Shown: piece by piece, positions 12,853 to 61,398 of the stretch
Layout of the letters: each line of letters begins with the position of its first letter
Position numbering within the stretch: the first letter of the stretch is position 1
DNA from: Eledone cirrhosa
Lineage: Eukaryota
Direction: 5' to 3'
Length of the DNA: 64,000 nt
Assembly: GCA_964016885.1 (NCBI GenBank)
Contig: OZ024741.1
Location: forward strand, 338,520,001-338,584,000
The notes under the pieces: model-generated
The model's input: the letters and a program-made list of their open reading frames with translations, nothing else
The model's database searches: none
Told to the model about the DNA's origin: nothing
Position numbers and translations under genes: made by a program

Positions 12853-13183
12853 CGCGTGTATACATATATATATGTGTGGATGTCTGTGATCTATATACAC
12901 TGGTCATAGACACACTCACATACACACACATATATATACACAACAACAACACCAGCTCTCTCTCTCTCTCTGCTTATGAAGGTACCCAGAAAACCCCATA
13001 TCTCGGGAACCCGTGCTTCGATTTACGCGAAAATTGTTTTATTCCATTTGTATTCCCATTTCAAGGTCAACTTCCTTTCAAAGTATTTTCCCATTATGCG
13101 CCCTTTTGGCTGTATTACATTACAAACAAGCAAGCAAGCAATCACAGGATTTTAGTAATATATATATATATATATATATAAAT

Positions 13184-13857
13184 GAAATGAATACAAAGAG
13201 TTTAAAACCGTTAAAACATGTTTATATAATTGTGCACCTACGTACGTTTCGCCCTGAGCGGGCTTATCAAGGGCATGGAAAGCAAAATAATGTTCAATAT
13301 AGGACCCAGGAGGGAATTCACGGTTAAATTAACATCATCATTCATTTTCCCTCTGTGCATGTTTTTATTATCACAGAGCAGGGGAGGTAACTCTGGCCGG
13401 TGTTCAAGCAATCAGTCCCATGTGGATTTTTATGCCTGTTCATATGCTGGTGTTTAGCATCTTTATATTATGTGTGTTGTTTCACTAGTGCCAGTACAGG
13501 TCGGGTCTGGGGTGTCCATTTATTATTTAGTGGATGTTGCTTCACTAATGTTTGTTCGAACAACACATAATATAAAAATGCTAAACACCAGCATATGAAC
13601 AGGCATAAAAATCCACATGGGACTGATTGCTTGAGCACCGACCAGAGTTACTTCCCCTGCTCTGTGATAATAAAAACACATGCACAGAGGGAAAATGAAT
13701 GATGATGTTAATTTAACCGTGAATTCCCTCCTGGGTCCTATATTGAACATTATTTTGCTTTCCATGCCCTTGATAAGCCCGCTCAGGGCGAAACGTACGT
13801 AGGTGCACAATTATATAAACATGTTTTAATGGTTTTAAACTCTTTGTATTCATTTCC
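13184..13857. repeat. ~297-bp inverted repeat carrying a hammerhead-like motif in each arm
   Basis: 13184-13480 is the reverse complement of 13559-13857 (mirror ORFs 13230+ and 13523-); motif at 13765-13807. Confidence 0.9.
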
Positions 13858-14065
13858 TTTATAATCGCTCTGCTTATTTTTTCTCGCCCATTAAATATTG
13901 ACGCCTCTAATATTTAACCCTGTAGGCACGAGTATTGAGCACACATGCATAAACTATTGGCAACTAAATATATGTATTGACCATCTTTCCATTCTCTTCT
14001 CTCTCTCGATACCTAATCATTCTATATATATATATATATATATATACACATACACACAGAGAGAT

Positions 14066-14946: not shown

Positions 14947-16124
14947 AGTGTGTAAAATCTCAACTGCAGCCACCAAGCGGTTTTGGCTTGTGGGTTCAGG
15001 AAGCCTTTCCAATGGCGTAGTAATATCTGTAAGGTATAAAAAAAAATAGGTCACTGGTCTTGGTAGTGCTTTGGCTGAGTTTATGGATAGATGGAGGAAA
15101 TGGGAGCACAGACAGTGGTAAGTATATGGAGACAAGTAAGAGGTCAGGAGAAGGAACAAGTGTGGTGGGGATAGGGGTGGTTAGTGGGTAGGAGTGAAGT
15201 AGGAGAAGGAGCATAATGGTCCTAGAAATAGAGGATGGGGTTATTTACAAATGGGTCTTATAGGCTGAAAGGGTATTTTTAAGTGAAGAGTTAACATTAA
15301 GTCGGTTATATAGAAGGGAAGAATTAACAGTAAAAAGTGGGTTATATAGAAGTAAGTTAACAGATGATTAAATAAAGTAGTGAATAGAAACAAATCAGGT
15401 AAAGTATAGGGTTTTAAAAATAAGTATAGTGGTGAAGTGTATGTTCCATGTGTATGAATACTGCATAGAGGCACACATAACAAAATACTGGGGAGCTATA
15501 GGTTTTGCATGAGAATACATGAATAAAAGAGTCAGATATTACTTTAAGGGAGGAGTGGGGGGAAGTGAGAATTTAGATAGCAGATAAATGAGTAGGTGGA
15601 GAGTGGGCAAGGTATACACAAACAGGCACAGGTGCATTCGTGTATGCACACAAACACACAGCACATTCCCTACCTGCAAGTGGTGTGCAGAAACATAGAT
15701 ATATATGATGATGGCTGCAACTCGATTTCGAGTAATGCCATCACTTGATACTTAAGCATGAGCATCAGGGACGTGGCTTTTTAATCCTGCAAGGAACTTG
15801 CCTATGGCCAGCAATACCATGCATCGCAAAAAATATCACATGTCAAGCGATGCCTGTGCTTGAAGCTTTTTTAAGTGAGGAAAGGCTTTGCACAGGGCAA
15901 TCCCACTCTCTAAACATAGAATGCATTTGACCAAAAAGAAAAACTGGTCTACAACATTGGGTGCAAACAAAGTTGCAGGTTTTATATCAGAGTGACCTTA
16001 TAATAACACGCATGTGCACATCCATCCACCATCACACTTACACACACACAGGCCCATGCATATCCCCAAGGGAAGAGGGGGATGGAACTGTCCACGCCCA
16101 TGCTCCTAATATATATATATATAT

Positions 16125-16900
16125 ATTAGAATTGGTGCTCTGCAATAGCAATGTATATATGAATGTATGTATAGTATATTTGGCAATATACCGTATGTTT
16201 AATTTAAAACATTTTGAAGACCTTGCGCTATCATTTTTAAAGTAGTGACTATGTCACTTCTTTTTTCGGCAAAAAAAGGGAGAGAAGCTGACATTCTGTT
16301 TCACGCTGTTGGCGATCCTCAGAGCATCGTACTCACCGCCTTTGCCGAAAATTATAGAGGCCGGATTCTTATAGAATTCCAGTAATAATCACGAACTAAT
16401 TATACAGAGCGATGTTCTGAGGATCGCCAACAGCGTGAAACAATCTGTCAGCTTCTCTCCCTTCTTTTGCCGAAAAAAGAAGTAAGTGACATAGTCACTA
16501 CTTTAAAAATGATAGCGCAAGGTCTTCAAAATCTTTTTAATTAAACATACGGTATATTGCCAAATATACTAAGCATACATTCATGTATACATCGCTATTT
16601 CAGAGCACCAATCCTAATTTTTAATTTTTGCTGGACCGGCAATCGCTCTGTATAATCAGTTCCTGATTATTACTGGAATTCTATAAGAATCCAGCCTCTA
16701 TAATTTTCGACAAAGGTGGGGAGTATGATGCTCTGAGGATCGCCAACAGCGTGAAACAGAATCTGTCAACTCATCTCCTTTCTTTTGCCGAAAAAAGAAG
16801 TGACATAGTCACTACTTTAAAAATGATAGTAAAAGGTCTTCAAAATCTTTTTAATTAAACATACAGTATTTTGCCAAATATACTATACATACATTCATAT
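16125..16900 (+). mobile_element. Retrozyme-like array: one inverted copy plus ~1.5 tandem 316-nt units, three hammerhead motifs
   Basis: CTGAGGA-TCGCCAACAGCGT-GAAA-CA..TGTC at 16417 (+), 16733 (+) and 16322 (-); flanked by (TA)n. Confidence 0.8.
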
Positions 16901-17059
16901 GTATATATATATATATTTGTGTGTGTGTGTATATATAAATATATATATATATATGTGTATAAGAGATGTCAAAATGTATGGACCTGTTATTTTTATCTAA
17001 AAACATTTTTTCCAATTCCGACCCACCCATCCCTTCAATCTATCTTATTTCTCATTCTT

Positions 17060-17320: not shown

Positions 17321-17664
17321 TATAAATAATATAAAATCAAAAGATGGTTAAAAGAGTTCCATGTATTTTATTATGCGCATTTCAAAAACAAATATCATCA
17401 TGAGATGATATTTGCGTTCTCATCAGATAAAATAGGGAGACATGATATGAAGCTTAAAAAACACTTGCGAGCAGTGAAGTGTTAAATCAACATATTGATT
17501 TAACACTTCACTGCTCGCAAGTGTTTTTTAAGCTTCATATCATGTCTCCCTATTTTATCTGATGAGAACGCAAATATCATCTCATGATGATATTTGTTTT
17601 TGAAATGCGCATAATAAAATACATGGAACTCTTTTAACCATCTTTTGATTTTATATTATTTATA
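17321..17664. repeat. Near-perfect 170-bp-arm palindrome with a hammerhead motif in each arm
   Basis: 4-nt centre CATA at 17491-17494; + strand motif at 17551-17621. Confidence 0.9.
17551..17621 (+). ncRNA. Type I hammerhead ribozyme
   Basis: TATTTTAT-CTGATGA-GAACGCAAATATCATC/GATGATATTTGTTTTT-GAAA-TGCGCA-TA-ATAAAATA. Confidence 0.75.
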
Positions 17665-19201: not shown

Positions 19202-19384
19202 GTATGTATTTATATATATATAAACGGAAAAAAATGAAACGAAATTTCATTTCCCACTCTTAGTACGGTTGTTACTTAAAAAGTATGTACACGTACATAC
19301 ATATATGTATACAGACGTACAGTAGTATGTATATATATATACATACACGCACACATATATATATGTACGTATGGATTCACTGAA

Positions 19385-21150
19385 CATTTATTATAATGCT
19401 CGGTGTGTTTGAATAGGGTGGTGTTGTCTGCGTACTGTAGGTCGGTTAAGTGGTAATTCCTGAAGGTAACACTAGAAACTCACTCACATACTTTGGTCAT
19501 CAGATAGTCAATGACGTAGCTGAAAAGGTCAGGGGCAGCCTTGTCTGACCCCGCTGTTGATGGGGAACCAGTCGGAGTCCTTCCCGTTCTCCCACACACA
19601 AATCTTGACACTGCTATAGAGCCATTGGAACAGGGTATGATCTTTGGAGGTGCACCAACAAGCTGGAGAATTTTCCAGAGGGATGTGTGGTTGACTATGT
19701 CAAAAGCCTCCTTAAGGTTGATGAAGGCAACATAGAGGCTGCAATCATATAGATGTGATCAGCGGTGGATCGATTAGATATGAATACAGCTTGTTGTGGA
19801 CGACATCTGCTTCTGTTGGCTGGAAGAGCAAAGTTGAGGAGGATCTTGGTGAAGACTCTGCTTAGGATGGAGAGAAGCATGATGCCCCTATGGTTGCAGC
19901 AGATGAGTTAATCACCTTTCCATTCACAGAAGGAGAGGATAATGCCTCGAGTCCAGTCATTTGGAAGTGGCTCTGACACCCATACATGGTTGATGATACG
20001 GGTGGGCCACTGGATCATGTTATCTCCACACGCCTTCAACATTTCTGTGGTGATGGTGCAGATTCCAAGGACTCTGTCGTTTTGAGCTTCTTCAGGGTGG
20101 CTCTGACTTTATTGGGAGTGACAGAATCGAGTCTGCAGGAGTTGTTGGCTGAAGCCATGTCTGTGGTGGTGGTTAGACTGGGATCAATTGGGACTGGTGG
20201 GTGATGCAGAAGAAGGCTGAAGTAATCCTTCCAGCATTCGAGGTGGTTTCAGTGGTGATGACGTTGCCATTGGTAGCCTTCACCATGGTTGTCTTGATCT
20301 GGTTACCTGCACAAGCTCTGTGGAGTGTGTTGATTACCTGGCTGAGGTTCTTGTTCCTTGCTGTTATCTCCAGGCCCTCGGCTTCTTCCGCCCAAATTTT
20401 CTCCCTGTCAGCTGTGATGGCCTTGTTGCATATCTGGTTGAGCCAGTGGTACTCATTCATGTTGCTGCACAGGCAAGCCTTGTGGTGACAGTTAATCAAC
20501 TTCAGTGTCCGCAGTAAACTCCAGAAGAACTCTTGTGTTTAACAGGACGTTGCGCCCTGACTGGTTAATGCTTGATTTAAAGATATCTCAGTTGTCAGAT
20601 GCTGAAGTGATTGGCGATAGAGCACGCAAATGTAGAGGCGATGTTGGGATCGTGGAGACAAGATGAGTCAGGGCGGGATTGGTACTTGGTGCAGGGTCCA
20701 CTTGCAACTTCAGCCTCAGTGTCACAGCCAGCAACCAATGATCAGTATTGCTGAGTTGAGCTCTGGCAGTTGGTGATAAACAACCTCCAACAACAGATGA
20801 TGATGATGTGGTCGATTGCCTTCCAGGTGTAACCATCCGGACTGTACCAGGTCCAGTAATGGATGAGTTTGCAGGGGAATCAGGTGTCAGCAATACACAG
20901 ATTGTTGTAATGGCAGAGGAGCAGCAGGCAATCACAGTTGTCATTGGTGGATGGGTTGGTGAAGATGGCACCAATGGGCTGAGCCTACAATGGGTCGGTT
21001 GGGGTGAGCCTGGCATCCATCAGGATGATCGTGATGTCATGGGGTGAGATTTGTCCCAAGACTTGTTAAAGCTGGTTGTAGAAGTCATCCTTGACAATGT
21101 CTGTAAAGGCATAGGCAACGATGATAGTCATCTTCTCGTGCTGGTGGAGA
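19385..21150 (-). mobile_element. Degenerate RTE-clade LINE
   Basis: Minus-strand remnants MLLSILSRVFTKILL, NRSTADHIY and TDHWLL; many disablements. Confidence 0.7.
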
Positions 21151-24884: not shown

Positions 24885-25482
24885 TATGAAGTACGTGTAT
24901 GTGTATGGAAGTATCGGAGTTTGTAAAACAAGATTGCAAGAGTGAAAACAGTATGAAAAAGTAAAGACTACTATCAATATAAAATCAGGTGAATGGGTCT
25001 TTAAAAAAGAACAATAGTTGTCAATATAACAAATACAAATTTGGTATTGAGTCTGTCAAAATAGGTAAGAACAAGGCTATTATCACACTGCAAACATCGC
25101 TTGTATACAAGGCTTGAGCGAACCCAGTTCTCATTAATAAGAAAGGAAACGAAAAGTAAGAGGTTTAGCAATGTTGTGCAGCGTGGGGGTGTTTTGGATC
25201 GTAACATCGCTTGTGAAAAGAGAAAAACGAAGTATGGAAATTATATCCTATGAGAGGTTGCTGAATAAGGAGAATGCATTGGCGAGAAAGAGAGGTAGTA
25301 CCTTACGTAGACTTAACAGAAACGGACCAGCTATTGAGGTTGACTACTTTATGATTGAAATTACCCCCAAGGGTATGAAAATAACTGGGCTATTCGCAAA
25401 ACCAATCAGGTAATACAGGTAGGGGTGAATCCCAGTCTGACCTATCAGTATCATCAGCTACAAGAGAAAAAATGCTCTATAC

Positions 25483-25769
25483 CAGTGATTCTTAACCTGG
25501 GTACCAGTACTCCTAAGGGGCGCGACATTCAGTTCCTGAGGGTGTAGAGAAGCAAAAACAGAAGTCACATTCAAGATTAAAATATTTTGATTGGATATTT
25601 TCTGTTATGTTAAAAAATTTTAATTTGTTTCAACATAGTTATTTAGCTTGAAAAATAATTTAACCTGAAAATTCAAGTTATTTTGTCTTATGTGCTAGGC
25701 TTAGGGATGTGGGATGGAATTTCAAAATCTTAAGTGGTGCTGTGATAGAAAAAAGGTTAAGAACCACTG
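25483..25769. mobile_element. hAT (Charlie-like) MITE inside an old RTE fragment
   Basis: TIRs CAGTGATTCTTAACCT / AGGTTAAGAACCACTG; 8-bp flanks CTCTATAC / ATCTAGAA. Confidence 0.75.
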
Positions 25770-26134
25770 ATCTAGAAAGAAGCAACTGCAAAAACATTAA
25801 GCTGACACACCAAGTTATAAAAATAACAGAAAGAATTATAGCACAACTATTTAGGAAGGTGTGATGAAGTTGAGGTTGGTACCATGATGGAATACCACTA
25901 ATGCCTTCTTCCTAATGAAACAACTATAAGATACTCTTGGTAAAGAGGAAGCCACTAAGCTTTGACAGAGTATCACATTCTGTAGTGTGGTGGTTGCTAA
26001 GAAAATTAGATGTTCTAGGGGGAGCTGCAGGGTATGGATAAAGCCATAAGGATATATATATGAAACAGGTACTGGGCTACATGGTACCAGTAGCAGACAG
26101 ACATGACCTGATATACTATACTTATATCAGTTAT

Positions 26135-27045
26135 ATGTGTGAATATTTGGTTGTCTGGGGCGAAAACTGCACAGTTCATCAGCTAGCTTGGACTCGACAA
26201 TCTCCCCACATCTCTTTGACAGACACTTAGCATAGACTTTATTGTGGAGGCTTAACAAGGCAATCCCTCTATAATTGGTGTTACTTAAATCGGCAGAAGG
26301 TGATCTCCGACTTGCAGTTGATAGGTTTGATGCCGAGTGCTGCATGGCTGGAATGAAAATCAGTGCTGCGAAAACTGAGATACTTATCCTCTCAAAGAAG
26401 CCTCTGCACTCTATATGTGAATAGAGTTCCACTGTAGCAGGTGGAGAAGTTCAAGTATCTCAGGGCATGTTCACAAGTGATGGAAGGCAGGAGGCTGAAT
26501 TATGTGCAAGTATTGCAGGAACTGGTGTAGTAATGCACTTGCTTCAGTTTTCGGTCATCAGAAGGGAGGTATGCATTAAAGCCAAACTCGCTTTCTTCAA
26601 TTCGGTATTCATGCCAACCCTTACTTATAGTCATGAATCTTTGGTAATAACCGAAAGAATACAAACGATCAAAATGGGGTTCCTCAAAAGGGTCTTTGGA
26701 GTAATGTTACTTGAAAGAGTGTATAGTTCAGAGATCAAAAAATCATTCCAGGTAGAGCTGCTACTTCTCTGAATTGAGAAATCACAGCTCCAATGCTATG
26801 GGCATGTGGTTAGAATGTCTCAGGAAAGAATCGCTGGACAAATTTTATTGGCAAAACCAACTGGCAGGAAACCCAGGAGTAGACCCCAAGCAAGATGGTT
26901 GAATAACATCCATGAGTTTGGCTGGTCTTGCTTGGGGATCAAACCAGATCAGTTGGAGACAGTTGCTTCTGACAGGACCTGCTGGAAGGAGTGTTTGAAG
27001 ACTACCCCCACAACCCTCTCAGGAATAAGTGAGCGAAGATGAAGA
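26135..27045 (+). mobile_element. RTE (Expander-like) insertion with an inverted 5' segment
   Basis: 26140-26275 encodes NYRGIALLSL... on the minus strand; 26290-27040 encodes downstream RT/thumb sequence on the plus strand. Confidence 0.7.
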
Positions 27046-27826
27046 TATATATATTTATTTAAAGTTAAGAGAACCAGGGTTTTTAAATTAAATCTATCTT
27101 TGATATTTACAATTGCTTCTATGCAGGTGATAAGCTTACATGAATATGCAAACAACGAATTAATCAGTTATAACTAATTAACAATTATTTGCACAATAGA
27201 CAAATAATACAATCACTTATATATACTATCATCATCGTCGTTTAACGTCTATCATCCATGTTAGCATGGGTTAGACGGGTTTGTCCCATTTAGAGGTAAG
27301 TTGGGTCGGGTGACCATGTCTCGCTCGTATAGGACTATTTCTGGCTGGTTTTCTACAGTTGGATGCCCTTCCTAGCGCTGACCACATTTACAGTGTGTGC
27401 TGGGTGCTTTTTGCTGTGTCTTTTACATAACCAATTTGGCAGTAGCAGTAAGATAGTGTTAAGCATAATAGTGTATATGAAAGCATATACATTAAACATG
27501 GGAGCCTCGCTATCAAAGAAAAAATATTTTATTGTTATGAAAAAAGTATTTCTCTTTCTTTTGCATGTGAACATGTCATAGATATCTCAGTATCTATTGA
27601 GAATGCCAGACAGCTGTTTCAAAATTCAATAACATTCATTCAACTGGTACTGAGATGAAAATAGATTAGAGCCTATATAAACATGCAAATGTTTAGTACA
27701 CAAAATCTTAGAGCAAAAAAGAGAAAAATAATTTTTCATAAAAAAAATATTTTTTCTTTGATAGCGCAGCTCCTATATGTTTATTGCATATGAAAATATA
27801 GTATATGCATTCATATACACCCCTTG

Positions 27827-28196
27827 CGAAATTCCAATACATACCTGTAAACAATGCTCAAAGCTAAATCCTAATTCTATTCTATCATAAGCAAATGAGA
27901 TTAATCACCTCATTTACACAGACGAGAAAACTATATATTCTCGCCTATTTTCCAAGTCCAGCAGTTGCAAGGGCGGGAGGGATCGTCCTGACGAGAACTA
28001 GTTCAGTTCGAAATGCGCATCGACGATTGTCCCCCTTGCTTCTGCTGGACACTGCCAGTTGGCGATAGTCACTGGTGTTTTTGCATAGCTGCGAATTTCT
28101 AAATCTTTATTTATAAACATACCGTATTTCTTTAGAAATACGAAATTCCAATACATATCTGTATATAGCTATGCTGGAAGCTAAATCCTAATTCTA
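27827..28196 (+). mobile_element. Retrozyme-like 314-nt unit with ~55-nt terminal direct repeat
   Basis: CGAAATTCCAATACATA...AGCTAAATCCTAATTCTAT at 27827 and 28141, enclosing a canonical hammerhead. Confidence 0.75.
27982..28027 (+). ncRNA. Canonical type I hammerhead ribozyme
   Basis: ATCGTC-CTGACGA-GAACT(AGTTC)AGTTC-GAAA-TGCGCA-TC-GACGAT; all core bases intact; further pairing GTCCAGCAG..GCAAGGG / CCCTTGC..CTGCTGGAC. Confidence 0.85.
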
Positions 28197-28207
28197 TATA
28201 GATATAT

Positions 28208-28394
28208 ATCAAGAGTCAGCTAAAAAGTTCATAGGCTATGAAGGAGTGATGCTAGTGCTGTGAAATCTTGCATGCATTAATGTCAACTCTTCTTAATTGC
28301 ATTGTTTCTTTTTAGGGACTATGTTAAAAAATAAACCTCATTTGGTCATTCCATAAGAGTATCTTGGTCAGTGAATTTTTCAGCTGACCCTCAT
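28208..28394. mobile_element. Mariner-type MITE (reverse orientation)
   Basis: Reverse complement of the 23174 family; ends CAGCTGACCCTCATA. Confidence 0.7.
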
Positions 28395-28984
28395 ACATAG
28401 ACACATACATATATATGACATGACCAGGCTAAACACGTTCTAATATATATTACCTAAAAAAAAACTGAACCTCACAAAGAAGACAGAACTGTGCAACACT
28501 AAAAGTAAATATGAGAGACTGCAGGCTATAATCTTTGGCAACTAAACATAAGCAATGTAAGTTTTAAGAAGAATCTTTAGTCTTGCCTAGTATATGACGC
28601 CTTAAATGCTGGTGCCACAATAATATGCACCCTGTAAAGTGTTACTGTTGGAACCATGATAAAATACACCCAGTCCACTCTGTAAAGTGGTAGTGCTCAT
28701 GTTGCGGAAAAGAAACCCAGTACACCCTGTAAGATGGTCAGTATGACGATGACCATCCAACCATAGAAGCTATGTGAAATGTGGAACAGAGCAAGGTTGG
28801 TTGAATTAAACCATTCAGTTTCAGATCATGACAACACATCCAAGCAATGCCAACATGGAAAGTGGATGTGAATTGGTGATGGTGTTGATGAACTCTGGGC
28901 GTGGGGGCATTCAGGTAGTTTGGTCATGTAGAGCAGCTAATGAAAGGGAACAACGCTTTCATAAAAATATATATTTATTCTCTA

Positions 28985-29004
28985 TTTTTTTTTGTTTTTA
29001 ACAG
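28985..29004 (+). promoter_or_regulatory. Splice acceptor of the ZNF coding exon
   Basis: Long poly-T tract followed by AACAG, 540 nt upstream of the ATG. Confidence 0.55.
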
Positions 29005-29543
29005 ATATGATCAACGCAAGATGGAAAAGCCAATTGTCAATGCACCTGATATCATGTTTCAAAGAAAATATTTCCAAAGAAATCCTGTTGCATGGCAAAT
29101 ATTGCAGTGATTTATACAGACATTAAATAGTGCAGTGAATTATACAGACATTGCAGGGACTTACACAGATGTTGTAGTGAATTATAGTGTCATAGCAATA
29201 AATTACAGTTATTGCAGTGAATTAGTCATTGCAGTGACTGACGCAGACATTGAACACTGCATTTTAATTTCAGTACAAGCAGTGTCATACTTAGAGGATA
29301 TATGAACACATACATATAAGTATGTATACTTGTACACAGACACACACACACAAATATATATATGTATATAAATATGTAAGTTTGTATGTGCATTAATATT
29401 TGTGTGTGTATCGTTATGCATATCAACACATTTCAATAATACAGCTGAGTGTTGTTATACAACAAATGTGTAAATAATTGTTCAAATCTGGCTAATTTAA
29501 GAGACAATTTATTATAAGAATCTAAAGAACAGCCCAAACCAAG

Positions 29544-30965
29544 ATGTATACAGCACATTCAAATGTATATACTTCAGTAGGAAATCCGCAACAACAGCAG
29601 CAGCAATATGATTTCAGTGGCTGCAGTAAAATTTATGTTGAACCTCCATCAACAGGTGAAGACTCAACGAGGGCTCACAAGGCCCACCATGGCAACCATG
29701 CAGGCAATAACTCCAACAATGTAGACAGTAGCGGAAACCATAATCACAATCACCACAACCACTCACAGAGTATTTCTCCAGGTTTAGGGGCCAATTCCAG
29801 TAACAACAATAGCAGCAACACTGCAGCTTCTCCAGATGATGACCACTCAATAGCCAGTGGTAGCCATGACAATGGAAATCCCAGTCATCAGAACATCCCT
29901 GTACCAATCTCTGGCATGACAAATTATGGTGTTTATACCGGTCATAGTAGCCGCAAACCATATCGATGTGGTGTTTGTCGGAAAGGCTTCTCAGTGAAAG
30001 CTAACCTGCATAAACACGAGCTGATGCCAGATGAAGAAAAACACTTCTACTGTAGTCAGTGCCACAAAGCCTTCAGCCAGCGTGAGAAGTTGACCAACCA
30101 TATTCGTACTCACTCTGGTGTGAGGCCATTTACATGTCAGGTGTGCGGGAAATCGTTTGGTCAACGAACTCATCTGACCACACATTCCAGAATCCACAGT
30201 GGTATTCGGCCATATGCTTGCAACCAGTGTCCAAAAAGATTTAGTCAGAAAGACCACCTGGTCAACCACAGTCGCACACACAGTGGGGAGAAGCCATTTC
30301 TATGTGTAATCTGTCAGAAGTCATTTTCACAACGAGCACACCTCAAGAAACATAGTCGTGCCCACTTACAGTCTTCATCATCATCATCATCATCATCATC
30401 ACTAGGAATGGGCAATAGCTGCAGTCAAGGATGTGGCAAAGGTGTGTCAGTGGGGGAGACAGCACATCCTCATCATCACCACCACCACCATCATCACCAC
30501 CACCATCACCACCATCATGACAAACAATCACAAAATAGCTCATCACCGGCTTCTGTCGGTGGTGGTGGCAGTAGAGGCAACATCAAAGTGATGTGCAAAG
30601 CTAACACATCACCACCACCACCACCACCACCACCACCACCTCCACCACCGCCTCCTCCTCCGACATCACTTCCACCAACTCTGCCACCATCACCCTCATC
30701 ACATGCTCACCACCACCATTCTCATCAACACGGCCATCACCACCACCACCACTCTCATCACAGCCAGCAGCACCAAACAAATGTTGCCCAACAGCCTTGC
30801 ACTGAGGCCAATCTACCTACATGGCGATCAACTGCACCCAGTGCCAATTTTGGGAATTGGTCTTCAGGTACATCTGCTGCATCTGCTCTAACAACTCCTT
30901 GGACACCAGGGTGGACAGATGCACAGGTAAACCATACCTGTGGACAAGGCAGACCAAGAGAATGA
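29544..30965 (+). CDS. C2H2 zinc-finger transcription factor (4 canonical and 1 degenerate finger; poly-Q/N/S/H/P tracts)
   Basis: 473-aa open frame; fingers CSQC, CQVC, CNQC and CVIC with HxxxH and SG(V/I/E)(R/K)P(F/Y) linkers. Confidence 0.92.
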   Translation: MYTAHSNVYTSVGNPQQQQQQYDFSGCSKIYVEPPSTGEDSTRAHKAHHGNHAGNNSNNVDSSGNHNHNHHNHSQSISPGLGANSSNNNSSNTAASPDDDHSIASGSHDNGNPSHQNIPVPISGMTNYGVYTGHSSRKPYRCGVCRKGFSVKANLHKHELMPDEEKHFYCSQCHKAFSQREKLTNHIRTHSGVRPFTCQVCGKSFGQRTHLTTHSRIHSGIRPYACNQCPKRFSQKDHLVNHSRTHSGEKPFLCVICQKSFSQRAHLKKHSRAHLQSSSSSSSSSSLGMGNSCSQGCGKGVSVGETAHPHHHHHHHHHHHHHHHHDKQSQNSSSPASVGGGGSRGNIKVMCKANTSPPPPPPPPPPPPPPPPPTSLPPTLPPSPSSHAHHHHSHQHGHHHHHHSHHSQQHQTNVAQQPCTEANLPTWRSTAPSANFGNWSSGTSAASALTTPWTPGWTDAQVNHTCGQGRPRE

Positions 30966-33861: not shown

Positions 33862-33927
33862 TAACTAATTCGAACGAGGAAGTAACCTCACTTCTTGATA
33901 TTTTTAAAACGGCAACTTTTATACAAA

Positions 33928-34593
33928 ATGTGTTCTAATGCTTGGAAGGTAAGGAGAAATCTGCATCTTCTCTACGAAAACTTATCGCCACCTGATATAC
34001 AGTCTATTGTCGACAAATTTCTACCGAATGAGGAATTGGCAAGACCCACTAATGATATAGACAGATATTATTTTTTAAATGTTATGATCCATCTTACCAA
34101 AATAATCGAAGATGAAACCAAATATAATGAATTTATAGTTCATATAAAAACTAATTGCGATAAGAACGAAGTTGCAGACGAAATTAATAACTCAAATTTT
34201 AAAAGATCTATTGAAGGTTCATATTATGACCTTATAAGGGATCTAAAAAACAACTGTAAAGAAAAAAAGAAGCAATACCTGTGTGTAAATTTACTCGGAC
34301 GTATTCTATTGAACGTTTCACCCAACGGGTGGGAGTTGGCTGCTGAAAAACTGGAAATTACTAACAATGACATCCACAAAATTAGCACCTCCGTCTGCAA
34401 TAATAATCTGTTAGACATGATAAGGGTTTTTGATGTGTGGAGAAAAAGAAAAGGATACGAAAACGGGGTTATAGAACTGCTGGAGGCCCTTCACAACAGT
34501 CAATGTGTTGTTGACTGGCAAGGCGTGAAAAATGTGCTGTTCGAGAGTACAGAACAACCCCCTGAAAAGGACGCCAGTAAATTGGTGGGTTAA
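33928..34593 (+). CDS. Intronless death-fold adaptor: CARD-like N-terminus plus C-terminal Death domain
   Basis: 221-aa ORF from ATG 33928; C-terminal WELAAEKLEITNNDIHKI...RVFDVWRKRKG...ELLEALH is Death-domain-like; the CARD call for the N-terminus is weaker. Confidence 0.7.
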   Translation: MCSNAWKVRRNLHLLYENLSPPDIQSIVDKFLPNEELARPTNDIDRYYFLNVMIHLTKIIEDETKYNEFIVHIKTNCDKNEVADEINNSNFKRSIEGSYYDLIRDLKNNCKEKKKQYLCVNLLGRILLNVSPNGWELAAEKLEITNNDIHKISTSVCNNNLLDMIRVFDVWRKRKGYENGVIELLEALHNSQCVVDWQGVKNVLFESTEQPPEKDASKLVG

Positions 34594-37071: not shown

Positions 37072-37218
37072 TTATTTTATTATATATATTTCAAGGGCAA
37101 GCAAGGTATCCTTGGTGCGCTTTCATCAGATAAAATACAAGATTTGTTTTATAAATATTGACATAACCGTGGAAAAACAACCTTGACGGTTATGTCAATA
37201 TTTATAAAACAAATCTTG

Positions 37219-37283
37219 TATTTTATCTGATGAAAGCTCACCAAGGATTCCTTGGTTGCCCTTGAAATATATATAATAAAATA
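37219..37283 (+). ncRNA. Type I hammerhead ribozyme in an inverted repeat
   Basis: TATTTTAT-CTGATGA-AAG..ACCAAGG/CCTTGGT..CTT-GAAA-TATATA-TA-ATAAAATA; mirror copy at 37072-37136. Confidence 0.7.
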
Positions 37284-46575: not shown

Positions 46576-47709
46576 GGCACTACAACGCTATTAGCTGTCA
46601 GTCGAAAGCAGCCGATGAAAGCAAAACATCGTTTATTTCCGTATTACTACCACGCGTAAGTAGAGTTACTTAAATGAAATTTTTTTTTTTCACGTGTTTT
46701 TTAAATTTTTTATTAAAGCATATAGATGTAAGTGGAGTTACTTAAATGAAAATATCACGCGTTTTTTTATTAATTTTTTTTTTATTAAAGCATATTGATG
46801 TAAGTGGAGTTACTTAAATGAAAACAAATTTAAGTTAATTAGAAAACAAGTCATGGTTATCAAATAAATTGGATTTAATCATTTATATTTTCATAGTCAT
46901 GGTTATCAATGTAGAAAACAAGGCATTTTCACCAACAGTGGAGTTACTTCTGACAGCTAATACCATGAACTATATTTTCATAGTCATGGTTATTAATGTA
47001 GAAAACAAGTCATTTTCACCAACAGTGGAGTTACTTTGACAGCTAATACCATGAACTATATTTTCATAGTCATGGTTATTAATGTAGAAAACAAGTCATT
47101 TTCACCAACAGTGGAGTTAACTTAAATGAAAATATAGGTGGCCCTTAAAAGGGCCAAATTAGAAAACAAATTTATGGTTATCAAATTTTTTTCACCAACC
47201 CGTTATGAAGAAATGTTTAGAAAACAAATTTTTTTCACCAACCTTATTCAAAAGCATGGATACAGTCAACATGGAGATTGATGGTATCTGCTGTAGTAGC
47301 GGTAGCGATGGAAAGATCGCAATGGTTAATTCCATTAACAATTTGGCCCTTTTAAGGGACACCTATATTTTCATTTAAGTTAACTCCACTGTTGGTGAAA
47401 ATGACTTGTTTTCTACATGGGTAACCATGACTATGAAAATATAAATGATTAAATCCAATTTATTTGATAACCATCACTTGTTTTCTAATTAACTTAAATT
47501 TGTTTTCTAATTTGGCCCTTTTAAGGGCCACCTATATTTTCATTTAAGTAACTCCACTTACATCGATATGCTTTAATAAATAAATAAAAAAATAAAAAAT
47601 GCGTGAAAACTCCACTTACGCGTGGTGGTAGTAATACGGAAATAAACGATGACGAATGACGTCACCTTCGCCTGCTTTCACGACTGACAGCTAATAACGT
47701 TGTAGTGCC
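46576..47709. mobile_element. Merlin-related non-autonomous element, quasi-palindromic
   Basis: GGCACTACAACG...CGTTGTAGTGCC termini; shares a ~32-nt internal segment (~47282) with ~35955; TSD imperfect. Confidence 0.75.
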
Positions 47710-56186: not shown

Positions 56187-59100
56187 ATCATCATCATCAT
56201 CATCATCATCATCGTTTAACGTCCATGTTCCACGCTTGCATGGGTTTGGACGGGAGTTTTCCCACTTGAGGCAAGAGTGGTTGTCTTGCTCGCATAGGAC
56301 TGTCTGGCGGGTTTTCTACAGCTGGATGCCCTTCCTAACGTCAACCACATTTACAGTGTGGGGCTGGGAGGTTTTTACCGTGTTGCCTACACGACCACAT
56401 TACAGCGTGGACTGTCTGGCGGGTTTTCTATAGCTGGATGCCCTTCCTAACACCAACCACATTTACAGTGTGGGACTGGGAGGTTTTTACCGTGTTGCCT
56501 ACATGGCCACATTACAGCGTGGACTGTGTTTTTTGTCGTGACACCTACACGATCTCATTTGTTTCGGCCTGGATGTTGTGGCACCAACATAACTTTACAT
56601 TGAAAGGGGCGGTGTGGATAGGGTGGGGGTGGTGGGACGGGGTGTATTTTGTTAGAGATGCCTACTGACTGTAGTAGGTTTTACTTTGTATTTAGGTAAG
56701 GCGGGTCTTCTCTATTACTGAGTACCGCCAAAGGTCTCGGTCCAGTGACATTGTCTTGGAGAGGTGTAAGTGTGTGAGGTCGGAATTTATCAGCTCGTCC
56801 CAGGTTTTTCTGGGTCTGCCTACTCCGTGGCTACCATCTATCTTTATTGCCCTGCACTTTGTTATACAGCTGTCGTCTTTCATGCGTATTACGTGACCAT
56901 ACCAACGTAGCCTTCTCTCGAGTAAACATCTGATCCCTCTTATTTCTAATTTTTTCCTTAGTTCGTTTATGCTTTGCCGTTCACGTATATTACTATTACA
57001 CATCCAGCGGAGCATGCAAGCTTCGTTCCTCTCTAGTCTGCGTATATCCTCTGCACACAATGCCCAGGTCTCACTGCCATGCAACATTGCTGTTCGTATG
57101 CAGGCATCATACAACCTGCCTTTCATTTTTAGGGAGAACCCTTTAGCGGCTAATAGTGGTATAAGCTCTCTGAACTTTTTCCATCCAGTTCTGACTCTAG
57201 CTACTGTACTTTCGGAGCACCCTCCCCCACTGCTGATTTTGTCACCCAGATAACGGAAGCTGTCCACTATTTCTATAGAACCCTCTGCGTAATTGAAAGA
57301 GCTAGTATTTTGTGGGCACTTGCTGCTACTTATTGCACCAGAGCACCGGCCACATGTAAAATTTGTGTTCTTAGTTAGCTTACCTGTGATCCCACTACAT
57401 CTTTTATGCACCCATACTTTGCATTTGGGACATAAAATGGAGTTTCTACCTACGCCTTCCCTACACACTGAGCATGGCCATTTCCCGGAAGGGACCGGCG
57501 CCTTATTTTCTTTCCTACAAACTAGAACTTTAGTCTTAGCCAGGTTAATTTTAAGGCCTTTTGATTCTAGGCCGTGCTTCCATGTTTGGAATTTCTTCTC
57601 TAGCTCGGCCATTGATTCAGCTATGAGCGTTAGATCATCTGCGTATAGGAGTTCCCATGGGCAGCCGGTCTTGAACTCCTCTGTTATAGCCTGAAGGGCA
57701 ATAATAAATAGTAGGGGGCTAAGAACAGAGCCCTGATGGACACCAACTTTTACACTAAACTCTTCACTATATTCGTTGTTAATTCTAACCTTACTGACTG
57801 TTTCTTTATACATGGCTTGTATAGCTCTCACAAGCCATTCGTCAACACCTAGTTTTCTAAGAGACCACCAGATAATGGAACGGGGGACTCTGTCGAAGGC
57901 TTTCTCCAAGTCGACAAAAGCTAAGTATAGGGGTTTACTTTTAGCTAGGTACTTCTCCTGTAGTTGTCGTACAATGAAAAGAGCGTCTGTGGTACTTTTG
58001 CCTGACACAAACCCGAACTGCATTTCATCTAGATCAATTCTCTCTCTGATTAGTTGCGCTATTACTTTTTCAGTGACCTTCATGACCTGGTTGATTAATT
58101 TAATGCCTCTATAGTTACTCCTATCTAGGGCGTCTCCTTTACCCTTGTAACAGTTAACGATGATGCTGCTATGCCAGTCCTTCGGAACAACCCCATTCTG
58201 TATGACTTGGTTTACTATCCGGGTGACCATGGTGTGTCCCACCGTTCCAGAGGCTTTTATCATCTCAGCAACTATTTCCGAAGGCCCAGCCGCCTTACCC
58301 GTCTTCATATCTTTGATTGCCTTACTTATTATACTACCTTCGACTAACACTGCTGGTCCCTCTATTGGGTCGATGTGGGGGAGACTGTCTTTCTCCCATT
58401 TATTCTCCTCATTTAGTAGCCTTTCGTAGTGACACTTCCAAGCTACCTTCTTATCAGCGTCAGTGATGGCAAGTATGCCATCATCGTTAAGTACACACTT
58501 CTCCCCGACAATATCACGGTTTTCCTTGACACATTGACTAGCAATCCTGAACACCTCACGTTTTTGGTCCTCGCGTTGTAGAACATGCTTGAACTTTCTT
58601 TCCTCTGCTTCCCTTCTTGCGAAGTACACTTGCCTCCTAGCTTCCCTCCTGGCCACTTGATAGTCTTCTCTACTTCCCCCATCCCGCCATGCTTTCCAAG
58701 CCTGCTTTTTGGCCTTGATTGACCCCTCCACCTTACTGTTCCACCACCATGTTACTCTCCTCCTGCCTACAGGCCTGCTCCAGCCACAGACTTCATCTGC
58801 CGCCATCAGCAAGTTTGCTTTCAGGAATTCCCACTGTTCCTCTACCTTGTACGACTCTAACTGCTCTTCCTTACTGTCGAAAGCATCAAGTAATATGCTT
58901 TGAAATTTATTTCTGGCTGTGGGATCCTTTAGCTTCCATATTTTTCTCCTGAAGATAATCCTCTTCTGCTGTCTAGTACGTCTCGTCCTGACTATGAGGT
59001 CACTAATTATCAGTCTATGTTGGGAGGTGCACTCTTCATGGGGGAGGGATTTAGTGTTTACAACAGACACTCTGTCACGTCTTCTGGTAAGGATATAATC

Positions 59101-60051
59101 TACCTGGCTGGTATGTTCCCCTGATCTGTAGGTGATCAAGTGATTGTCTCGTTTTTTGAAGTTAGTGTTACAGATAGTTAGGTAGTTTGCATCACAGAAT
59201 TCCAGGATTCTGGAGCCTTCCTCATTTCTAGTACCAAACCCATAGCCTCCGTGGATTCCGTCATAGCCGTCACAATGTTGTCCAACGTGGCCATTTAGGT
59301 TGCCAGCAATAATTATATAGTCACTATCGGTTATTTGGGAGGTAGTGAGCATCAGTGTCTCATAGAATCTGTCTTTTATAGCGCCAGGCAGTCCGGATTG
59401 GGGCGCGTATGCAGATATTACTGTCACAGTAGTTCTGTTTAGAACAAGTCTTATTTTAATTATTCTGTCATTCACTCTATTTACATCTATTATCTTATCC
59501 ACCCATTTTTTTGCTAACATGATTCCTACCCCACCTATCCCATTGTCATTTCCCACCCAGAAAAGCTTATAGCAACGTTTTTTACCCACAATGAATCTAG
59601 CAGACCCGCCCCTCCACCTGGTCTCTTGGATACAGCAAACATCAACCTCTTTACGTTCAAGCAATTCTACAACCTCGTTAGACCGGCCTTTTAAGGTGCC
59701 TACGTTCATGGTACCAACTCTGAAGTTTTGGATTGTGTTGGGAGGATGGGGTGCAGGGATGGGTGAGGAGGATGGGGTTAGGGTTATGTTGGCCATCCGC
59801 GGCCGAAACAAAGAGGGGGGGGGGGCCTTGCCCTTTCGTCCAGCAGCATGAGGTGAATTTGTCGTTATCTTTGGCATTGTCATCGAGTGTCCAGATTCTT
59901 CAGACTCTCCAGTTCATTCATCCATATATATCTACAATCGTTGCTATCCTATAATTCCGTCTCACTGTTCTAAATTAATCTTCTCCACGCTTGTTCTAAA
60001 TTAATCTTCTCTTTGCTACCATTTTGGCCGAAAAAGAAAAAAAAAAAAAAA
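56187..60051 (-). mobile_element. Full-length RTE LINE (subfamily C)
   Basis: Short 5'UTR with a 24-bp tandem repeat, single long ORF, 3'UTR with a 112-bp duplication (56297/56409), (TGA)n tail; TSD not found. Confidence 0.93.
56692..59883 (-). CDS. RTE polyprotein: APE endonuclease, reverse transcriptase and PHD-like C4HC3 finger
   Basis: 1063-aa uninterrupted ORF; TMNVGTL, IQETRW, SAYAPQ, QVDYIL, FVDLEKAFD, GVHQGS, YADD. Confidence 0.95.
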   Translation of the reverse strand: MTMPKITTNSPHAAGRKGKAPPPSLFRPRMANITLTPSSSPIPAPHPPNTIQNFRVGTMNVGTLKGRSNEVVELLERKEVDVCCIQETRWRGGSARFIVGKKRCYKLFWVGNDNGIGGVGIMLAKKWVDKIIDVNRVNDRIIKIRLVLNRTTVTVISAYAPQSGLPGAIKDRFYETLMLTTSQITDSDYIIIAGNLNGHVGQHCDGYDGIHGGYGFGTRNEEGSRILEFCDANYLTICNTNFKKRDNHLITYRSGEHTSQVDYILTRRRDRVSVVNTKSLPHEECTSQHRLIISDLIVRTRRTRQQKRIIFRRKIWKLKDPTARNKFQSILLDAFDSKEEQLESYKVEEQWEFLKANLLMAADEVCGWSRPVGRRRVTWWWNSKVEGSIKAKKQAWKAWRDGGSREDYQVARREARRQVYFARREAEERKFKHVLQREDQKREVFRIASQCVKENRDIVGEKCVLNDDGILAITDADKKVAWKCHYERLLNEENKWEKDSLPHIDPIEGPAVLVEGSIISKAIKDMKTGKAAGPSEIVAEMIKASGTVGHTMVTRIVNQVIQNGVVPKDWHSSIIVNCYKGKGDALDRSNYRGIKLINQVMKVTEKVIAQLIRERIDLDEMQFGFVSGKSTTDALFIVRQLQEKYLAKSKPLYLAFVDLEKAFDRVPRSIIWWSLRKLGVDEWLVRAIQAMYKETVSKVRINNEYSEEFSVKVGVHQGSVLSPLLFIIALQAITEEFKTGCPWELLYADDLTLIAESMAELEKKFQTWKHGLESKGLKINLAKTKVLVCRKENKAPVPSGKWPCSVCREGVGRNSILCPKCKVWVHKRCSGITGKLTKNTNFTCGRCSGAISSSKCPQNTSSFNYAEGSIEIVDSFRYLGDKISSGGGCSESTVARVRTGWKKFRELIPLLAAKGFSLKMKGRLYDACIRTAMLHGSETWALCAEDIRRLERNEACMLRWMCNSNIRERQSINELRKKLEIRGIRCLLERRLRWYGHVIRMKDDSCITKCRAIKIDGSHGVGRPRKTWDELINSDLTHLHLSKTMSLDRDLWRYSVIEKTRLT

Positions 60052-61339: not shown

Positions 61340-61398
61340 GGTGTCTGATGAGACCATAACTGTTGCATAACAGTTATCACCGAAATATATATATAACC
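61340..61398 (+). ncRNA. Hammerhead-like motif
   Basis: CTGATGA(61345)...ATAACTGTT/AACAGTTAT-CACC-GAAA-TATATATA; related to 10120; stem I imperfect. Confidence 0.5.

Follow-up and report, generated by a model that had tools for sequence, protein, structure and literature searches.

An intact hammerhead ribozyme upstream of a zinc-finger gene lies in a truncated repeat copy, probably of a non-autonomous retrozyme family of Penelope type

A sense-oriented hammerhead motif upstream of a zinc-finger open reading frame (ORF) raises the question of whether the ribozyme serves the gene or was brought to this position by a mobile repeat. We examined the locus within the whole stretch of 64,000 nt that was analysed (the window), together with its relatives in the 3.0-Gb animal genome, whose repeat types suggest an octopus-like source. 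The explanation that we favour, with a probability of roughly 85%, is that the hammerhead belongs to a truncated copy of a high-copy, ~342-nt non-autonomous retrozyme, likely pasted by Penelope machinery, whose place near the zinc-finger gene is likely due to chance. The parts of the motif are listed below.

27982-27987/28022-28027, + strand: helix I, 6 bp plus one G-U pair
27988, + strand: start of CUGACGA, from the motif scan
27995-27999/28005-28009, + strand: helix II, 5 bp in the window copy
28013..28020, + strand: helix III, an 8-nt palindrome, 2 bp with a 4-nt palindromic loop
27956..28050, + strand: long hairpin enclosing the hammerhead core, with helix I, an internal loop and a GC-rich distal extension

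A scan of both strands recovered an intact type I hammerhead at 27982-28027 (+), with the cut predicted between 28021 and 28022. The original prediction of an intact hammerhead in sense orientation was therefore confirmed, as core, helices I and II, GAAA, UGCGCA and the AUC site with the cut after 28021 were all recovered. The motif displays the features of the canonical type I form, that is CUGANGA, GAAA, a UH site, three helices and an open-ended helix I. In folding predictions, the 107-nt hairpin gave a z of -4.7, with none of 200 shuffles folding as well, and the whole 370-nt insert gave a z of -5.1. Helices I and II are predicted to form with pair probabilities of 0.86-1.0 in 95-, 370- and 801-nt contexts. 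As a monomer, helix III has a predicted pair probability of 0.001 and lies ~4 kcal/mol above the minimum, and its 8-nt palindrome is predicted to pair between two copies with -10.5 kcal/mol. [quoted passage not shown] The copy may nevertheless still cut if transcribed in sense, because its helix III variant, 2 bp with a tetraloop, is reported to function in monomers of invertebrate retrozymes. For invertebrate retrozymes with such a helix III, the available text of PMC7229834 gives monomer cleavage rates of 0.1-0.8 per min. Any effect of such cutting on the gene would be incidental.

The motif lies within a repeat copy with the following parts and borders.

27827..28196, + strand: truncated repeat copy, 370 nt, ~1.16 units of the ~342-nt hammerhead family, 5'-truncated
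27827..27880, + strand: partial unit at the 5' end, ~55 nt from the end of the preceding unit, pseudo-LTR-like, 3 nt shorter than in relatives
27884..27885, + strand: site of a 27-nt deletion that shortens the unit in the window copy
28141..28196, + strand: 3' terminal repeat, ending at the commonest 3' end of the family
28197..28209, no strand assigned: TA-rich tract at the 3' junction, probable insertion target
27440..27826, no strand assigned: older inverted-arm repeat adjoining the insert, with seven relatives fetched

The original prediction described a terminally redundant unit of 314 nt. The redundancy holds, the ends at 27827-27880 and 28141-28197 matching each other at a spacing of 314. 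As a unit size, 314 nt has to be given up, since relatives of the insert repeat with a period of about 341-342 nt and a 27-nt piece close to the unit junction, present in 23 of 30 aligned units, is missing from the window copy, as are 3 nt of its first repeat. The spacing of 314 nt is a consequence of these deletions, and the unit of the family is about 342 nt. No ORF of at least 100 aa runs across the unit, and local GC is 0.32-0.35 in the 500-nt bins covering it. The family is thus a non-coding repeat within the 150-450 bp range with one type I hammerhead per unit, a high copy number and a GC content below 50%, as expected of non-LTR retrozymes. The window copy shows truncation and a TA end, has no inverted partner, carries a single hammerhead and is flanked by no target-site duplication beyond chance matches of 6 nt. 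Its surroundings are rich in repeats, with a LINE-like fragment, the older inverted repeat at 27440-27826 and further repeats downstream. In two of the seven fetched relatives of the repeat at 27440..27826 there is a hammerhead-like core, which runs antisense relative to the window hammerhead. A short MITE-like inverted-repeat element with very high contig depth is found at 28236-28371.

Concerning the family as a whole, a search with the insert gave 3,478 candidate places in the genome, and the 40 of these that were scored mostly displayed 80-91% identity. A 27-nt core pattern matched 395 times in the genome at no more than one mismatch, the 20-mer just downstream of the core had 727 exact matches, and the core of a second subfamily had 127 exact genome matches; the reversed controls gave 0. 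As an unbiased sample, we took the first 100 listed of the 727 20-mer matches, of which 99 hits at 93 loci were analysed. Mean pairwise identity of the aligned units was 88%. Identity to the column majority was 94.5% for the window copy and 88.6-96.4% for the other 29 units. The closest pairs among the 99 sampled of 727 matches were 96-98% identical, from which we conclude that the family is ageing and that the second subfamily is younger. Fully intact cores made up 15 of the 99 hits in this sample and 7 of 45 among similarity-picked cores, and the window copy belongs to this intact minority. As for the 5-bp stem II of the original prediction, five pairs are indeed seen in the window copy; helix II of the family consists of 4 bp with a 7-nt loop, and the fifth pair is nearly private, occurring in 2 of 24 parsable cores. 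The longer helix III of the window copy is likewise a minority form, helix III being shorter in 42 of 47 cores of the unbiased sample (99 of 727 matches).

Core columns displayed no extra conservation relative to the rest of the unit (p = 0.16). This fits neutral decay and shows no present activity. We then considered covariation in 64 sequences. The helices were paired in 91.3% of cells vs 85.0% after shuffling, with none of 500 shuffles as high, and pairing dropped to 21-49% when the partners were slid. Two subfamilies can be told apart by two-sided changes at one pair of helix I and three of helix II; the covariation counts are inflated by relatedness, in that few subfamily-level events are counted many times. 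The compensatory changes in helices I and II suggest that the ribozyme was likely selected during the spread of the family, and judging from these sequences the hammerhead was likely functional within the family while it was spreading. In alignment A1, 8 of 71 eligible stretches were excluded, two as segmental duplicates of L207 and six for large deletions or doubtful extent. L207, L208 and L209 have ~330 nt of upstream flank in common. L208 and L209 also share downstream sequence, indicating segmental duplication; L207 is without it, and there the flank could have been carried along.

The window contains another repeat family with hammerheads, which the original prediction had taken to be unrelated, with a convergent unit size.

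16120..16906, no strand assigned: 316-nt family locus, one inverted and two head-to-tail units
16322 (-), 16417 (+) and 16733 (+): cores of the 316-nt family, from the hammerhead scan

The 316-nt family has 2,706 genome candidates, with periods of 312-322 in 16 loci. The insert aligned colinearly with this family at z values of 6.4-10.3 in all four comparisons, a result matched by none of 300 dinucleotide shuffles, and the reversed and reverse-complement controls were near null. The profiles of the ~342-nt and 316-nt families also match each other's members on the same strand. Both results contradict the claim that the two are unrelated. When the family alignment was divided, the 3' part was significant (0 of 500 shuffles) and the 5' part alone was not (178 of 500). 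With the two families being homologous, their similar unit size was inherited and is not convergent, and the 316-nt family is a distant sister of the ~342-nt family.

Several more hammerheads and related repeats were noticed. We found no homology by dinucleotide shuffle between the insert and the hammerheads at 17559, 37227 and 61345, and rejected these as relatives; among the three, weak scores were obtained with a cruder shuffle. Positions 17321-17664 comprise a perfect 170-nt inverted repeat with two mirror-image intact hammerheads (17426 - and 17559 +) that have a long helix II, and a core related to them is present at L126:4362. Another head-to-head hammerhead pair (37129 - and 37227 +), whose helix III contains a TA palindrome, occupies 37081-37275; the core at 61345 is similar to these. 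An additional truncated copy of the 316-nt family lies at 973-1210. More distantly related to the unit is a third family, inserted in TA tracts (L055:2770-3023 and L121:319-595), of which the window contains a fragment at 19220-19411. Finally, a nested near-perfect inverted repeat of ~690 nt at 13177-13863, with a TA run at one side, resembles another Penelope-type inverted insertion and gives a weak match to the L034 flank.

How the copies were inserted was examined through their ends. Penelope-like insertions are described as displaying truncation, partial tandems, inverted 5' copies and a bias for microsatellites, with a 30-40-bp tail at one end only (PMC8557442, available text). The family displays these marks, namely 5' truncation, an inverted 5' partner, a one-sided tail and a microsatellite target. 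Among 54 similarity-picked loci, the 3' end carried a TA run in 37, as against a background of 14%; inverted 5' pieces were present at 18 of these loci and partial tandems at 26. In the unbiased sample of the 727 matches, a head-to-head inverted piece was present at 41 of the 93 loci, and a microsatellite was found no more than 230 nt downstream in 83 of the 99 hits, mostly at unit positions 280-345. The 5' ends in the same sample were widely spread, 11 of 99 beginning at the unit boundary. When all inverted pairs of the family loci were taken together (n = 59), one arm reached the full unit end in 42 and both arms in 2. In 25 of the 42 pairs with one full arm, the other arm stopped at 286-313 with a peak at 311, and the shorter arm most often ended about 31-41 nt before the full end.

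The sampled copies also bear on the template. In 87 of the 99 hits the copy continued upstream through the cut site by 20 nt or more, and 28 of the 99 were longer than one unit, a few of these being alignment artefacts. Read-through of the cut site indicates that the template was either circular or uncut; an uncut multimeric transcript would explain it just as well as a circle would. A pile-up of 5' ends at the cut site, first hinted at by similarity-picked copies (3 of 25), was considered and rejected; 10 of 99 ends fell within -7..+4 (p = 0.006), and with three internal deletions removed the value became p = 0.09.

We searched for an autonomous Penelope partner and for a source array. GIY-YIG elements are abundant in the genome (10,594 candidates, of which 150 were scored), and several of those fetched end in TA tracts. 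Two family profiles were run on 30 of the loci that the GIY-YIG search had given and on 20 regions with long ORFs. No terminal repeat homologous to the family was found among the 50 fetched of 10,594 GIY-YIG candidates, and the few profile matches near GIY-YIG loci were separate insertions in flanking TA tracts. When 22 Penelope ORFs were compared with ~150 family loci by tblastn, there were hits at 8, none as the body of the same element. An RT/GIY-YIG ORF was not found in the window copy or in the family loci examined. There was no long head-to-tail array at 71 exact cores of one subfamily or at the 100 cores listed of the 127 of the second, and the longest head-to-tail arrangements found were dimers, with partial tandems also present. 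The Penelope elements examined bear a different, minimal hammerhead variant. In L110, L111, L119, L121 and L129, Penelope-like elements which we take to be Neptune-like, a minimal hammerhead with a U3-A8 core variant and a CCGG palindrome lies 3' of the GIY-YIG ORF. These minimal hammerheads sit about 1.0-1.4 kb after the Penelope-like ORFs, the ORF in L110 being up to 938 aa.

The explanation we favour would involve the following steps. RNA transcribed from a source with two hammerheads would be cut into unit lengths and would probably become circular. Copying by a Penelope reverse transcriptase that has a GIY-YIG endonuclease would start at a TA-rich target, from a preferred point ~175 nt downstream of the cut site. 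The length copied would be variable, often running across the cut site and beyond one full unit, and an inverted second piece would often be added. As the window copy has a single hammerhead, it could not give a unit-length circle by itself and would be a dead end. Taken together, the family appears to be a previously undescribed non-LTR retrozyme family of Penelope type, an assignment based on sequence. A literature search, with the supplements of retrozyme papers outside its range, brought up no description of a cephalopod family of this kind; a squid genome paper counted 235 hammerhead loci (PMC6962438, available text).

The position of the insert relative to the gene is defined by two features.

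29526..30965, + strand: C2H2 zinc-finger ORF, stop to stop, 479 aa
28987..29004, + strand: putative acceptor-like site, pyrimidine tract plus AG

The original prediction placed an acceptor at 29004, ~1 kb downstream of the hammerhead on the same strand. A strong acceptor-like site was indeed present there, 983 nt from the predicted cut site, and it is the only one in 25000-29700 that passes the pyrimidine cut-off. The proposed 5'UTR intron fared less well, as no upstream exon was found for it. In contigs from four runs (run kind unrecorded), no splice joint at 29004 was among the joints listed, and one X4 contig (run kind likewise unrecorded) covers 28862-29324, the acceptor included, without a mismatch; both observations agree equally with the presence and the absence of an intron. 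No paralogue was found for the sequence surrounding the acceptor, which has just a short repeat match upstream. Elsewhere in the window, an ORF of 235 aa containing a Death domain (Pfam E 4e-5) lies at 33886-34593 (+), and an intact LINE-type ORF of 1073 aa at 56692-59913 (-); several relatives of the latter, in a decayed state, are also present in the window. Two matches to the Rfam histone 3' stem-loop are found in inverted orientation at 47115-47160 (-) and 47509-47553 (+), with no histone ORF nearby at a 130-aa cut-off.

Three other explanations were weighed. The hammerhead might be a chance motif in repetitive DNA, a view favoured by the Rfam scans of the window, in which a hammerhead was not called. 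We give it practically no credence, and regard it as already refuted, since 30 simulated windows scanned on both strands contained no match of equal strictness and homologous cores occur by the hundreds with paired changes. The unit could also be the pseudo-LTR of an autonomous Penelope-like element, the sampled copies then being extreme 5'-truncated ends. This would agree with the insertion geometry, which is that of Penelope-like elements (PMC8557442, available text), with the reported relationship between retrozymes and pseudo-LTRs (bioRxiv 10.64898/2026.07.22.740005, available text), and with a partner search that covered 50 of 10,594 GIY-YIG candidates. However, copies that cross the 5' boundary of the unit enter another unit and not a common unique sequence, and no copy among ~150 family loci is joined to an ORF end. 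Moreover, the family hammerhead is of the canonical kind, its helix I bearing a loop, in contrast to the minimal variants of the Penelope elements examined. We consider this explanation improbable.

The explanation raised by the original prediction is a regulatory one, in which the copy lies in a 5'UTR intron of the zinc-finger gene and the ribozyme cuts the pre-mRNA, tunes or lowers expression, and is kept for this function. Sense orientation, an intact core, the short distance to a strong acceptor-like site and helices I and II predicted to form within 801 nt all agree with this, as does a helix III variant of the monomer-competent kind (PMC7229834, available text). There are also precedents, as amniotes have conserved intronic hammerheads (PMC6155905, available text) and an engineered intronic hammerhead is reported to reduce mRNA up to 20-fold (PMC11856399, available text). 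The same source, on the other hand, describes most natural ribozymes as too slow in vivo and intronic sites as cut less, and helix III of our monomer is predicted to be unstable. The intron is a putative one, with no upstream exon found. With respect to its identity to the column majority the copy is an average family member, several more hammerhead repeats are found in the same 64-kb window, and 42-44% of Xenopus retrozyme copies are intronic in any case (bioRxiv 10.64898/2026.07.22.740005, available text). Intact cores are common enough in the unbiased sample that intactness at this locus needs no special selection. Orientation being a coin toss, with about one in seven copies intact and two orientations, intact sense copies near genes are expected many times over. 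A core preserved while the surrounding repeat decayed, which would mark co-option, was not what we found; the unit is there in full, and the divergence of the copy matches that of its siblings. In divergence, core conservation and family membership, no marks of co-option were seen for the window copy. Cleavage of the zinc-finger pre-mRNA by the ribozyme is possible but unsupported, and we judge regulation of this kind very improbable. A variant in which the copy is an early domestication, a first-intron retrozyme with the rarer, monomer-competent helix III and an extra helix II pair that brakes the zinc-finger gene by cutting itself during transcription, seems to us just as remote; were the copy to regulate the gene, it would provide a rare example of ribozyme co-option in an invertebrate. 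Returning to the retrozyme explanation, the position near the zinc-finger gene is probably a matter of chance and the locus an ordinary one. The single locus is of little import, and the family is a useful data set.

As for known systems, metazoan retrozymes are described as 170-400-nt repeats with canonical type I hammerheads that are expressed as circles (PMC7229834, available text), the units given by Cervera and de la Pena 2020 being 350-390 bp in mussel, 330/350 bp in axolotl and 220-245 bp in coral (PMC7229834). Our family resembles metazoan non-LTR retrozymes in its ~340 nt non-coding unit of low GC with one type I hammerhead each, in a helix I of 6 bp, a helix II of 4 bp and a short palindromic helix III, and in head-to-tail units, high copy number and the lack of visible LTR features. 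It differs in that most copies are dispersed and of sub-unit to 1.5-unit length with inversions, in that no long tandem array was found among the cores listed, and in the lack of a target-site duplication at the window copy. Metazoan retrozymes are known together with their circular RNA, whereas the family here is known from sequence alone. Like the RECK-type intronic hammerheads of amniotes, the window hammerhead is a single type I motif and may be intronic in sense; the amniote hammerheads show conservation between species and lie outside a repeat family, while the one in the window is inside a whole repeat copy (PMC6155905, available text).

Truncation, partial tandems, an inverted 5' partner, a one-sided tail of ~30-40 nt, microsatellite targets and a hammerhead in a terminal repeat are shared with Penelope-like elements and their pseudo-LTRs (PMC4209133 and PMC8557442, available text). 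Unlike Penelope-like elements, the family has no RT/GIY-YIG ORF, its hammerhead is canonical and not minimal, and no homologous autonomous element was present among 50 loci. Penelope elements have been proposed to mobilise retrozymes (PMC7229834, PMC4209133, PMC7761336 and bioRxiv 10.64898/2026.07.22.740005), so far, in the available text of these sources, from shared ribozymes, co-occurrence and pseudo-LTR trees. The copies of our family display the Penelope signature directly, with head-to-head inversions, a one-sided 30-40-nt tail and TA targets, and copies of more than one unit that run across the cut site are as a circular template predicts. The same relationship, with retrozymes as non-autonomous derivatives of Penelope elements and monomers as dispersed offspring unable to transpose, is proposed in bioRxiv 10.64898/2026.07.22.740005 (available text). 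The evidence given there consists of co-occurrence and of pseudo-LTR trees, mostly from vertebrates, whereas the link described here comes from the geometry of insertions within an invertebrate-like genome.
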